From Bacillota bacterium (GTDB lineage Bacteria; Bacillota; DTU025), in assembly GCA_050951805.1 (NCBI GenBank), contig JBMNJT010000008.1:288001-352000 (forward strand): 64,000 nucleotides of DNA. Direction: 5' to 3'. Below, one piece after another: positions 44,685 through 57,315 of the stretch. The translations under genes were made by a program, and so were the position numbers. Under the pieces are notes generated by a model that was given only the letters and a program-made list of their open reading frames with translations, had not been told where the DNA came from and searched no databases. Numbering within the stretch: the stretch's first letter is position 1; the number at the start of each line of letters is the position of its first letter.

Positions 44685-44713
44685 TTGGCAAGGCGGGTCG
44701 GCTTTGATATAAT
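44685..44713 (+). promoter_or_regulatory. Sigma-A promoter of T-box leader
   Basis: TTGGCA (44685) - 17 bp - TATAAT (44708), with extended TG. Confidence 0.75.
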
Positions 44714-44736
44714 AACAGCCAATAAGCATACAGCAC

Positions 44737-45030
44737 AAAGACGATGACCGAGAAGAAGTAGGACATGACGTAGGCCCGACAGAGAGTTCCCGGCTGGTGT
44801 GAGGGGCGGGGTTGTTATGTCTGAATACATCTTGGTAGTCGCTCACCCAAAGGCGCATTGACGCCCGGTAGGCTGAGACGGATTCACCCGTTACAGTGAT
44901 AGAGTATCGCGCACTATTAGCGCCGTACTTGAAAAGGCCGGCAACGCGAGTTGTCGGCAAATTGAGGTGGTACCACGGGATTTGGCGCTCGTCCTCTTGC
45001 TAAGGCAGGGGACGGGCGCTTCTTGCTTTC
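44737..45030 (+). ncRNA. T-box riboswitch, Tyr (UAC) specifier
   Basis: Stem I pairs GGACATGAC/GTTATGTCT and ACCGAGA/TCTTGGT; AGTA, AGAGAG and GGTGTGAG motifs; specifier loop GAA-TAC-A (44826-44828); T-box AATTGAGGTGGTACCACG (44960-44977); terminator GGCGCTCGTCCTC...GGGGACGGGCGCT plus U-rich tail. Confidence 0.92.
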
Positions 45031-45090
45031 CCCGCAATATGGGCGTGCTGGCGCCAAAGGGCACTCCCAAGTTAAAGGAGTGTATTTTTG

Positions 45091-46539
45091 ATGGCAAACG
45101 TAAGGTTCTTCACAGATCAGCACTTGCCCCTGGAGATGCACAAGGTGCGTATCGTACAGAAGCTGAATCTTCCTCCTATCGAGCGCAGGCTAGAGGCTAT
45201 CACCGAGGCAGGAAACAACACATTTCTTCTTCAGAATCGGGACATCTTTCTGGACATGCTCACAGACAGCGGGGTCAATGCCATGAGCGATCAGCAGTTG
45301 GCGGCGATGATGATAGCTGACGACAGCTATGCAGGCTCTGAAACTTTCACCAAGTTGGAAAACAAGGTGATCGAGCTTTTCGGCATGCCTCACTTTCTCC
45401 CTGCCCATCAGGGACGTGCCTGTGAGCATATTATTGCGTCAACCTTGGTTAAGCCCGGCAATGTCGTGCCGATGAACTTCCACTTTACTACCAGCAAAGC
45501 GCATATTGTTAGATGTGGCGGCATCGTTCGCGAGCTACTGATCGACGAGGGCCTCAAGCCTACAAGCGAGTTTCCGTTCAAGGGAAACGTTGACCTGAAC
45601 AAGCTGAGGCAGGTAATTGAGGAGGAGGGAGCAGGCAACATACCATTTGTTCGGCTGGAGGCGGGCACAAACTTGATTGGCGGGCAGCCTCTCTCGTTGG
45701 AGAATGTCCGCGAGGTTACGGCAGTCTGTCACTCCAACGGCATCCCAGTCGTACTCGATGCCAGCCTTCTTCAGGACAACTTGTATTTCATCCACGAGCG
45801 TGAGGAAGCATGTAAAGATATGAGCATACGAGAGATCACCCGTGCACTCGCCGACGAGGTGGATGTCATCTACTTCTCCGCGCGCAAACTAGGCTTTGCA
45901 AAGGGCGGAGGGATCTGTATCCGCGACCGTGTCATGTTCGAGAAGATGCGGGAGTTGGTACCCCTCTTCGAAGGTTTCTTGACATACGGCGGCATGTCAG
46001 TGCGGGAGATGGAGGCGATTGTGGTCGGACTTGACGAAACAATGGATGAGGATGTAATCTCCCAGGGACCACAGTTCATCCAGTTCATGACCGATGAGCT
46101 TCGCAGGGCCGGCGTGCCGGTTGTCACCCCTCCTGGAGGGCTGGGATGCCATCTAAATGCAATGGAATTTCTGCCTCATGTAGAGCAAGGCCAGTATCCC
46201 GCCGGCGCACTGGCGTCCGCGCTCTACATTGCTGGTGGGGTGCGAGGAATGGAGCGTGGAACCATGAGCGAGGCGCGCGAGCCTGATGGCAGAGAGGTTT
46301 TTTCTCAGATGGAACTGCTGCGTCTTGCGATGCCGCGACGCGTCTTCACACTCTCTCAGGTTAAATATGCGATCGACCGCATCATCTGGCTCTACGAGCA
46401 CCGGGATCTGATCGGGGGGTTGACCTTTGTTGAAGAACCGGCGATCCTCCGCTTTTTCTTCGGCAAGCTGAAACCCACTTCGGATTGGCAAACTGATCTG
46501 GCGAAGGCTTTTCGAGAGGACTTCGGGGACAGCTTGTAG
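45091..46539 (+). CDS. PLP-dependent beta-eliminating lyase, tyrosine phenol-lyase-type (TnaA/Tpl family)
   Basis: DMLTDSG, DDSYAGS, HQGR, MNFHFTT, SARK (PLP Lys), MERG, LRLAMPRR and LRFF motifs. Confidence 0.88.
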   Translation: MANVRFFTDQHLPLEMHKVRIVQKLNLPPIERRLEAITEAGNNTFLLQNRDIFLDMLTDSGVNAMSDQQLAAMMIADDSYAGSETFTKLENKVIELFGMPHFLPAHQGRACEHIIASTLVKPGNVVPMNFHFTTSKAHIVRCGGIVRELLIDEGLKPTSEFPFKGNVDLNKLRQVIEEEGAGNIPFVRLEAGTNLIGGQPLSLENVREVTAVCHSNGIPVVLDASLLQDNLYFIHEREEACKDMSIREITRALADEVDVIYFSARKLGFAKGGGICIRDRVMFEKMRELVPLFEGFLTYGGMSVREMEAIVVGLDETMDEDVISQGPQFIQFMTDELRRAGVPVVTPPGGLGCHLNAMEFLPHVEQGQYPAGALASALYIAGGVRGMERGTMSEAREPDGREVFSQMELLRLAMPRRVFTLSQVKYAIDRIIWLYEHRDLIGGLTFVEEPAILRFFFGKLKPTSDWQTDLAKAFREDFGDSL

Positions 46540-47969: not shown

Positions 47970-48680
47970 TTGGTGGCAGTCGCCCGGTCCGACCTGGCAT
48001 TTGACACTCCGGTCGCCATGAAATCCTCTGGCGCGGCAGCAACCGGGAGCGATCGTCCGGGATACTCCTACTACTTTGCGTACTGTGCCTATGCGCTGCT
48101 TGCCATGGTCATGACGGGCGTAAGCTCCATCATGATGTCGTTCAATAGGCCCGATCTCTACTTGCGCAACTTGTGCGCGCCATTGCCGGGCACGAGCATG
48201 AGCCTGCAGTTGGCTGCCGGACACGCGGTGTTTGCCCTGGGTTGCTGGGCCATACTCGTAGTAGGCAGCTTCGTGCTGCACGGCGAAAGCTTGGTGTCGT
48301 CGGGGTTAGCAGGGCTGTATTCCCTCAACACGTTGGCATTCGCAGCGGTGAGTGCGTGCATAGGTTTTCTCGTGGGCGGCTCCGTGAAGAGTAATGGCGC
48401 ACAAGCGGGAGCGATCAACGTCATCACTCTTGGCATGACCTTCCTGTGTGGTGTGTTCGTACCCCAGTCAATCATGAGCAAGTCGGTGCTGTCGTTCGGA
48501 AGGTTTTTGCCAACGTACTGGTTCATCCGGGCGAACGATGCCATAGGGGAGATTTCGAGCTTCACTGCGGATAGCCTGCGTCCCATCTATGGCAGCATCC
48601 TGATCCAGCTGGGGTTCGCTGTGGCCATATTCTCGGTGACGTTGCTTCTGAGCAGAGAGCGAAGGCTGTCGCATCTCTAG
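47970..48680 (+). pseudogene. ABC-2 transporter permease, C-terminal fragment
   Basis: Multiple TM helices, FLCGVFVP and FLPTYW motifs; no N-terminal part or RBS. Confidence 0.7.
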
Positions 48681-57126: not shown

Positions 57127-57197
57127 GAACCAGGAGTAGCCTATTCGATAAGAGTGTCCATTGACGCTACGCTATTGATAGCTGATATAGTAGTATC

Positions 57198-57257
57198 GAG
57201 GGATGAAGCTCCCCTCTGGAGTAATCCGAACCGCTGACGACAACTGATGGCTTCTAC
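57198..57257 (+). ncRNA. Fluoride riboswitch (crcB motif)
   Basis: GGGATGAAGCTCCCC...AACCGC...CTGATGGCTTCTAC matches the consensus; pseudoknot GAAGC/GCTTC; lies upstream of a cation/H+ antiporter. Confidence 0.8.
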
Positions 57258-57315
57258 AATCACACGTAGGAACCGTCGGCTTTTGTTTTTGGGTATCGGT
57301 TCCAGGGGGGATTTT

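Follow-up and report, generated by a model that had tools for sequence, protein, structure and literature searches.

A tyrosine-specific T-box upstream of a third-clade lyase of the tyrosine phenol-lyase/tryptophanase family suggests tyrosine synthesis from phenol in a Bacillota bacterium

In a 64,000-nucleotide (nt) stretch of DNA from a Bacillota bacterium (GTDB lineage Bacteria; Bacillota; DTU025), covering positions 288,001 to 352,000 of the forward strand of contig JBMNJT010000008.1 (assembly GCA_050951805.1) and hereafter called the window, a T-box leader was found upstream of a gene for a beta-eliminating lyase related to tyrosine phenol-lyase (TPL) and tryptophanase. That the leader is a T-box specific for tyrosine is certain. 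Because a T-box of this kind pairs with uncharged tRNA-Tyr and yields read-through, the established mechanism predicts that the lyase gene is switched on by tyrosine shortage, and the enzyme probably makes tyrosine from phenol. That it supplies tyrosine in some way would be likelier than that it does so from phenol in particular. The elements of the locus, in window positions, are as follows.

44685 to 44713, plus strand: sigma-70-type promoter, TTGGCA-17-TATAAT with extended TG, 11/12 positions matching
44735 to 44999, plus strand: T-box leader RF00230 (Stem I, Stem III, T-box sequence, antiterminator), 106.9 bits by cmscan against Rfam
44826 to 44828, plus strand: specifier codon UAC (Tyr), followed by A, from the cmscan alignment; the anticodon of the genome's tRNA-Tyr is GTA
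44968 to 44971, plus strand: T-box bulge UGGU, pairing with ACCA of tRNA-Tyr (A73), from cmscan and the tRNA ends
44984 to 45029, plus strand: intrinsic terminator, hairpin 44984 to 45020 and then the U-rich run UUCUUGCUUU to 45029 (RNAfold, z -3.8)
45075 to 45080, plus strand: ribosome-binding site AAGGAG, 10 nt before the ATG, read from the sequence
45091 to 46539, plus strand: 482-amino-acid (aa) lyase dependent on pyridoxal phosphate (PLP), third clade beside TPL and tryptophanase, starting with ATG one codon after TTG 45088

The match of the leader to RF00230 (E 1.3e-22; gathering score 93) covered all model positions, 1-219 of 219. When the window segment GAA-UACA-uCUUGGUAG was aligned by cmscan on the RF00230 consensus GAAauucaCCcugGAG, UAC stood at the codon position, and the bulge UGGU was present in the T-box sequence GAGGUGGUACCACGG. 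ARAGORN showed that the genome has a single tRNA-Tyr(GTA), ending in ...CTCTCC-A-CCA (A73), and a single tRNA-Trp(CCA), ending in ...CCCCT-G-CCA (G73). Since the discriminators are A73 and G73, respectively, the UGGU bulge suits tRNA-Tyr and not tRNA-Trp. The locus thus shows both marks of the T-box class: the specifier codon has a purine after it, and the UGGN bulge matches the cognate discriminator. RNAfold of 44920-45050 gave the hairpin GGCGCUCGUCCUC...GGGGACGGGCGCU followed by UCUUGCUUU, with -63.1 kcal/mol and a z of -3.8. The 5' strand of this terminator is also the 3' strand of the cmscan-aligned antiterminator, so that the two structures are mutually exclusive, as in T-boxes of the transcriptional type. 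The distance from the end of the -10 element to the start of the T-box was 22 nt; the promoter scan gave 1 site against 1.5 in shuffles, and the argument for this promoter is therefore its position and not its score. Downstream of the lyase gene, the next open reading frame (ORF) of at least 80 aa on the same strand begins at 47970, in line with a monocistronic unit. The initial annotation of this DNA, made from the letters of the sequence, had described the promoter, the T-box, the UAC specifier, the UGGU/A73 match and a monocistronic lyase gene, and its observation was right in each detail that could be tested.

The expected course of events is that uncharged tRNA-Tyr would pair with the UAC specifier and also, by way of the unoccupied ACCA at its 3' terminus, with the bulge UGGU. 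The antiterminator would then be stabilised, so that RNA polymerase could pass the terminator at 44984-45029 and transcribe the lyase gene. The lyase would act as a tyrosine-supplying member of the TPL/tryptophanase family that keeps the residues binding PLP, the alpha-carboxylate and the phenol ring, and would join phenol to a three-carbon unit to give L-tyrosine. The donor of this unit could be pyruvate plus ammonium, by the reverse TPL reaction, or serine or cysteine, by beta-replacement. The leader shares its UAC specifier, its UGGU-A73 pairing and its competing antiterminator and terminator with the T-box of Bacillus subtilis tyrS (RF00230, tyrosine class). However, what the T-box in the window controls is not a synthetase gene, a biosynthetic operon or a transporter gene; it is a lyase gene, and only degradative roles are known for the lyase family.

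Transcription of the locus was examined in metatranscriptome assemblies from anaerobic digesters and sludge (three studies, four runs), which hold parts of the window; the uncovered parts carry no meaning. One of the studies gave, in two runs, contigs covering 44738-45272 and 44734-45413, which bridge the terminator into the ORF. These contigs are consistent with transcription that begins at the predicted promoter and continues past the terminator. In two runs the leader contigs were of higher word depth than the ORF contigs, a difference that cannot rank the parts of the gene because it is one of contig depth.

The lyase was then placed within its family. The protein matched PF01212 with an E value of 9.2e-50 and 170 bits (curated cut-off 27). 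It fell below the TPL equivalog TIGR02618 (446.3 bits, cut-off 720.7) and below both tryptophanase equivalogs, TIGR02617 (338.6/825.8) and NF053783 (388.5/750), and the sole NCBIfam model that it passed was the broad subfamily PRK13238 ('tryptophanase'; 588 bits, cut-off 285). Its best relatives in the PDB were the canonical TPLs 2EZ1, 1C7G and 9J3U (E 1e-115 to 1e-111). In a FastTree of 108 sequences, 55 clade members and three representatives formed one branch with a support of 100, while the 30 canonical TPLs of the same phylum and two representatives formed a separate clade with a support of 98. By membership, it is thus well supported that the lyase belongs to a third branch of the family, neither TPL nor tryptophanase, and the 'divergent clade' of the initial annotation holds. 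The 120 best matches listed from a search of 5.8 billion proteins were 71-100% identical, nearly all 482 aa long, and carried the source names 'tryptophanase' or 'tyrosine phenol-lyase'. Among representatives at 50% identity, two were close (61% and 49%), and the others were at most 43% identical or were fragments or fusions.

Alignment with 2EZ1 showed that the TPL residues Tyr71, Lys257, Thr124, Arg381, Phe448/449, Arg404, Asp214, Asn185 and Arg100 are retained; the roles of several of them are given in passages of PMC9262865. Across the 55 clade members, the catalytic and substrate residues Tyr71, Lys257, Thr124, Arg381, Phe448, Phe449 and Arg404 were kept, and Asp214, Asn185 and Arg100 are likewise conserved in the clade. 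The motifs FTT, GMERG and LRFF were also present in the window lyase, so that the specificity residues are those of TPL and not those of tryptophanase, as had been claimed. The genome holds a second homologue (G000:C8:190708-192054, plus strand), which is 38% identical and of the tryptophanase type. In this TnaA-like paralogue the motifs FDTT, VELG and LRHF take the place of FTT, MERG and LRFF in the window lyase. No T-box was found at the paralogue, in a genome in which chorismate synthase was not detected either. The window lyase is of the same family as TnaA (EC 4.1.99.1) and passes PRK13238, and databases often label its clade 'tryptophanase'. With TPL (EC 4.1.99.2) of Citrobacter freundii and Erwinia herbicola, the window lyase has the PF01212 fold and the key residues in common. 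It differs from TPL in forming a separate clade, in changed invariant residues, in a C-terminal tail and in being, by prediction, on at tyrosine shortage. Canonical tpl, according to passages of PMC10170061, is induced by L-Tyr through TyrR and regarded as degradative. The TPL reaction is described as reversible in part of PMC13578870, where synthesis by the canonical enzyme is traded against breakdown.

The clade was also seen outside the Bacillota. Members at 61-72% identity (L017, L020, L022, L039, L044 and others) were present in Proteobacteria (Thauera, Azonexus, Thiopseudomonas, Chromatiaceae and Rhodomicrobium), Spirochaetes, Ignavibacteria and Thermoleophilia. This distribution suggests wide horizontal spread. 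A conserved leader or neighbour was not found for these members.

The recurrence of the pairing between T-box and lyase was investigated in two sets of loci, which overlap at least once (L076 and L016 are the same contig). Of 30 loci obtained from the genome collection, 29 had upstream sequence, and a T-box was present in 8/29, six above the gathering score and two at 83-86 bits. The cmscan alignments of all eight showed UAC and UGGU, and the loci include Halothermothrix, Dethiobacter, Bacilli, Christensenellaceae and Oscillospiraceae. The second set consisted of 401 genomes sampled evenly from the window's phylum, in which a clade carrier was defined by E <1e-150. There were 62 carriers among the 401 genomes, and leaders were examined in 61, one (G179) being left out as a match without its 5' end. 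A T-box was found in 28 of the 61 leaders (the window, 12 by Rfam, L080 by motif and 14 by motif alone), and the specifier context was UAC in 27 of these 28. The members with a T-box were dispersed on the lyase tree, where well-supported branches force at least six changes.

Because leader and gene recur together in 8/29 and 28/61 loci, chance pairing is excluded. The same data bear on the idea that the leader once belonged to a tyrS or transporter gene now lost and is without adaptive connection to the lyase, an outcome that the initial annotation had proposed to look for among the homologues. In favour of a leftover, the tyrS of the window genome does lack a T-box. However, the leader is not a relic, because the Tyr T-box recurs across the clade, in many families and scattered over the enzyme tree; moreover, promoter, specifier, bulge and terminator are all intact and RNA contigs span leader and ORF. 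A leftover is therefore extremely improbable.

Canonical TPLs provided a comparison. They were present in 31 of the 401 genomes of the phylum sample, and 30 such loci were scanned. A T-box at the Rfam threshold was found in 0/30, with three weak two-mismatch motif matches only. Both enzymes occur together in two genomes from the window's own family (L072 with L076, and L069 with L077), and in each of them the canonical TPL has no T-box and the third-clade lyase has one. Leader peptides rich in tyrosine were considered as another form of control; at 21 loci without a T-box, 500 nt of upstream sequence were searched for short ORFs with at least 3 Tyr or with YY, and only weak cases were seen: MDSIYYTL (L025), MKIFENPCYYL (L035) and MIYYIK (L033). 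Among the Pfam families of 10 neighbouring ORFs in non-T-box genomes, nothing conserved and nothing related to tyrosine was found.

We analyzed tyrosine biosynthesis in the window genome, which is 97% complete. PDH_N (tyrA), chorismate synthase, PDT, 3-dehydroquinate (DHQ) synthase and phenylalanine hydroxylase (Biopterin_H) were not found. Because tyrS has no T-box and none of the genome's other ten T-boxes, read by eye, is of the Tyr type, the leader of the lyase gene is the only Tyr T-box of the genome. Because no shikimate pathway, tyrA or phenylalanine hydroxylase was found, phenol salvage would be the sole route of tyrosine synthesis in this organism, besides uptake. PDH_N was then sought in the other genomes. 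In the genome collection it was not found in 6/8 T-box carriers and 0/21 non-T-box carriers. In the phylum sample the figures were 17/28 and 8/33, respectively, against 99/401 for all genomes and 74/339 for non-carriers (derived from the other counts), so that tyrA is missing about three times as often in T-box carriers as in other genomes of the phylum. The association with tyrA loss is real in the raw counts and not statistically established; a naive Fisher test (15/6 versus 4/33) used interim counts and ignored relatedness.

Two further T-boxes of this genome were recorded. The leader of leuS (G000:C2:1489274-1489614, minus strand) is 341 nt long, and within it a complete tRNA-Ala(GGC) gene (ARAGORN c[1489358,1489433]) separates the Stem III region from the antiterminator. 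At G000:C8:111741-112016 (minus strand), a T-box reading GAG-UGG-G with a UGGC bulge, by eye of the Trp type fitting G73, stands before a putative periplasmic binding protein gene, which may belong to a tryptophan uptake system of an aromatic auxotroph. The window itself also contains a fluoride riboswitch (RF01734) at 57190-57263, plus strand, which scores 35.1 bits (gathering score 34).

The leaders of carriers that have no T-box were also analyzed. In many such genomes of the phylum, GGUAG-type repeats recurred every 8 nt upstream of the lyase gene and were followed by an intrinsic terminator, as in GUAGGACAGUAGAACGGUAGGACGGUAG. About ten leaders of this type plus L045 were counted by eye. 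The loci with repeat leaders are listed here.

L082, L085-L087, L090, L091, L098-L100 and L045
L126
L130

The exact pattern TAG-N5-TAG-N5-TAG was present in 5/37 non-T-box leaders, 1/22 T-box leaders and 0/30 canonical TPL leaders. A search of five genomes with GTAG-N4-GTAG-N4-GTAG gave 10 matches, whereas the reversed control gave 0-1. Of these matches, six were in the lyase leader and two resembled simple repeats; one preceded a PF04392 ABC binding-protein gene with a like terminator, and one an AMP-binding enzyme gene. A permissive scan of 11 loci (E up to 0.1) assigned no Rfam family to the repeat leaders. In the RNAfold structures of L085, L098, L099 and L100, the repeats are paired to the terminator's 5' strand; because of this pairing, a protein bound to the repeats would favour termination.

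A HutP-family gene was present in 13/13 genomes with repeat leaders and in 0/6 searched genomes of the window's family. TRAP was considered as the reader of the repeats; however, PF02081 was found in just 7/10 repeat-leader genomes and also in 3 T-box genomes, and HutP, with 10/10, fits better. In all four genomes tested with Pfam, chorismate mutase directly follows the HutP-like gene, and in G267 these two are followed in order by DAHP synthase, TyrA and EPSP synthase. In G139, the same repeats and a terminator also stand before this HutP-like/chorismate mutase operon; among nine genomes, its leader showed a partial pattern in two and none in six. The likeness to TRAP and HutP lies in triplet repeats containing UAG that stand upstream of a terminator or beside a ribosome-binding site. 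Spacers are 4 nt for HutP and 2-3 nt for TRAP, whereas in the repeat leaders GGUAG plus 3 nt gives an 8-nt period. A further difference from HutP is that the HutP-like gene adjoins chorismate mutase, and in some genomes DAHP synthase and tyrA, and not hut genes. In L036 (1979-2500), a Tyr T-box and its terminator are followed about 190 nt later by UAG repeats directly adjoining the lyase gene's ribosome-binding site, so that two controls appear to act in series. Such an arrangement would be sensible only if one and the same condition opened the two elements. If the link between repeats and HutP-like protein holds, an independent regulator would treat the lyase like the genes of tyrosine supply.

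These data bear on the possibility that the enzyme is an ordinary degradative, TPL-like lyase whose T-box serves some other need, such as the release of pyruvate and ammonium, the removal of a toxic tyrosine analogue that blocks charging of tRNA-Tyr, or the degradation of cysteine or serine. The characterised members of the family are all known as degradative, many carriers have the full tyrosine pathway, and one T-box reads GCA (Ala). However, destroying tyrosine during starvation would be self-defeating in a genome without tyrA, the leaders are Tyr-specific in 27/28 and 8/8 cases, and canonical TPLs go without a T-box, also in the two genomes that hold the T-box-controlled clade beside them. 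The repeat leader, too, is common to the lyase and the HutP-like/chorismate mutase operon. A degradative role is accordingly quite improbable.

Several findings nevertheless weigh against synthesis of tyrosine from phenol. No phenol source was found in the window genome, neither a UbiD family member nor a canonical TPL; the phenol would have to be external, and it would be supplied by neighbouring organisms. The identity of the lyase to canonical TPL structures is about 45% (estimated by eye from the alignment). When 55 clade members were compared with 30 canonical TPLs, the clade departed from positions invariant in TPL (R217L, K256R, D258L, T216S, E69D, M288F and H343L), differences that the initial annotation had not noticed. 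In TPL numbering, L217, R256, F288, L343 and D69 were present in 55/55 members and L258 in 96%, and a conserved C-terminal tail is missing from TPL; TPL positions 217, 256 and 258 correspond to L226, R265 and L267 of the window lyase. Since the changed positions lie near the cofactor, the chemistry or substrate of the clade may differ from those of TPL. The RNA evidence consists of assembled contigs, which carry no information on the response to tyrosine. One leader, L145 (G357:C4), has a UGGU bulge and, by manual alignment by eye, the specifier context GAA-U-GCA-G, which is of the Ala type; L143, of the same genus, reads UAC. The lyase is also not confined to auxotrophs, tyrA being present in 11/28 T-box carriers of the phylum sample and in 21/21 non-T-box carriers of the genome collection, including Thauera, Azonexus and Thiopseudomonas. 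Moreover, the enrichment of tyrA loss rests on a few families of related genomes (f1, f23, f51, f69 and others), and on well-supported branches there were only 3 independent contrasts between T-box and tyrA loss (sign test p 0.25-1).

Because eleven T-box carriers keep tyrA, the lyase would replace TyrA only in part of the lineages and merely add to it in others. The bypass of the shikimate pathway and TyrA that the initial annotation had proposed would thus hold for the window genome, in which neither was found, and fits the 17/28 T-box carriers without tyrA; as a general property of carriers, the absence of tyrA does not stand.

The changed residues also leave room for the lyase to supply tyrosine without free phenol, the clade using an elimination or replacement chemistry of its own on a different precursor, for instance a derivative of tyrosine or some other beta-substituted amino acid. 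The T-box logic demands only that the product relieve tyrosine shortage, the substitutions R217L, K256R, D258L, M288F and H343L are invariant or nearly so and accompanied by the C-terminal tail, and the genome offered no phenol source. However, Thr124, Arg381 and Phe448/449, which in TPL contact the phenolic hydroxyl and ring, and the proton donor Tyr71 are all kept, and no reaction of the family is known to make tyrosine without phenol. Such a precursor seems unlikely, and synthesis from phenol is the reading that we prefer.

No description of a T-box paired with TPL or tryptophanase was found in the literature searched, the gene tables and supplements of T-box surveys lying outside that search. 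In the main text of Wels 2008 (PMC2494555), the words 'phenol', 'tryptophanase', 'tnaA' and 'lyase' do not occur. By title and abstract, the literature joining TPL with auxotrophy and shikimate consisted of engineering studies or reviews. The nearest counterpart is the engineered tyrosine synthase TyrS, derived from TrpB, which according to part of PMC13578870 makes tyrosine from phenol and a three-carbon amino-acid unit. The net reaction proposed for the window lyase is like that of TyrS. However, TyrS is an engineered protein of fold-type II, whereas the window protein is a natural relative of the fold-type I lyases and its reaction is putative.

If the lyase does make tyrosine from phenol, this would be a third bacterial route to tyrosine, beside prephenate/arogenate dehydrogenase and phenylalanine hydroxylase. 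More tentatively, we suggest that the clade could be a natural, dedicated tyrosine synthase working on environmental phenol and wired to tyrosine shortage by two unrelated RNA systems, the Tyr T-box and the GGUAG/HutP-like attenuator, with phenol cross-feeding an ordinary source of tyrosine in anaerobic communities that would have let lineages such as this one lose the shikimate pathway. Should the GGUAG-repeat/HutP-like system be confirmed, it would add a new attenuator, dependent on a protein, to the control of aromatic amino-acid supply. Some 15% of the genomes sampled from the phylum (62/401) hold the clade, which also occurs in several other phyla and is misannotated as 'tryptophanase'. 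Gut and digester models that count its gene as a producer of phenol or indole would then have the direction reversed, and predictions of auxotrophy from the absence of tyrA would need revision. A natural enzyme tuned to synthesis at low phenol would also be a useful starting point for biocatalysis.

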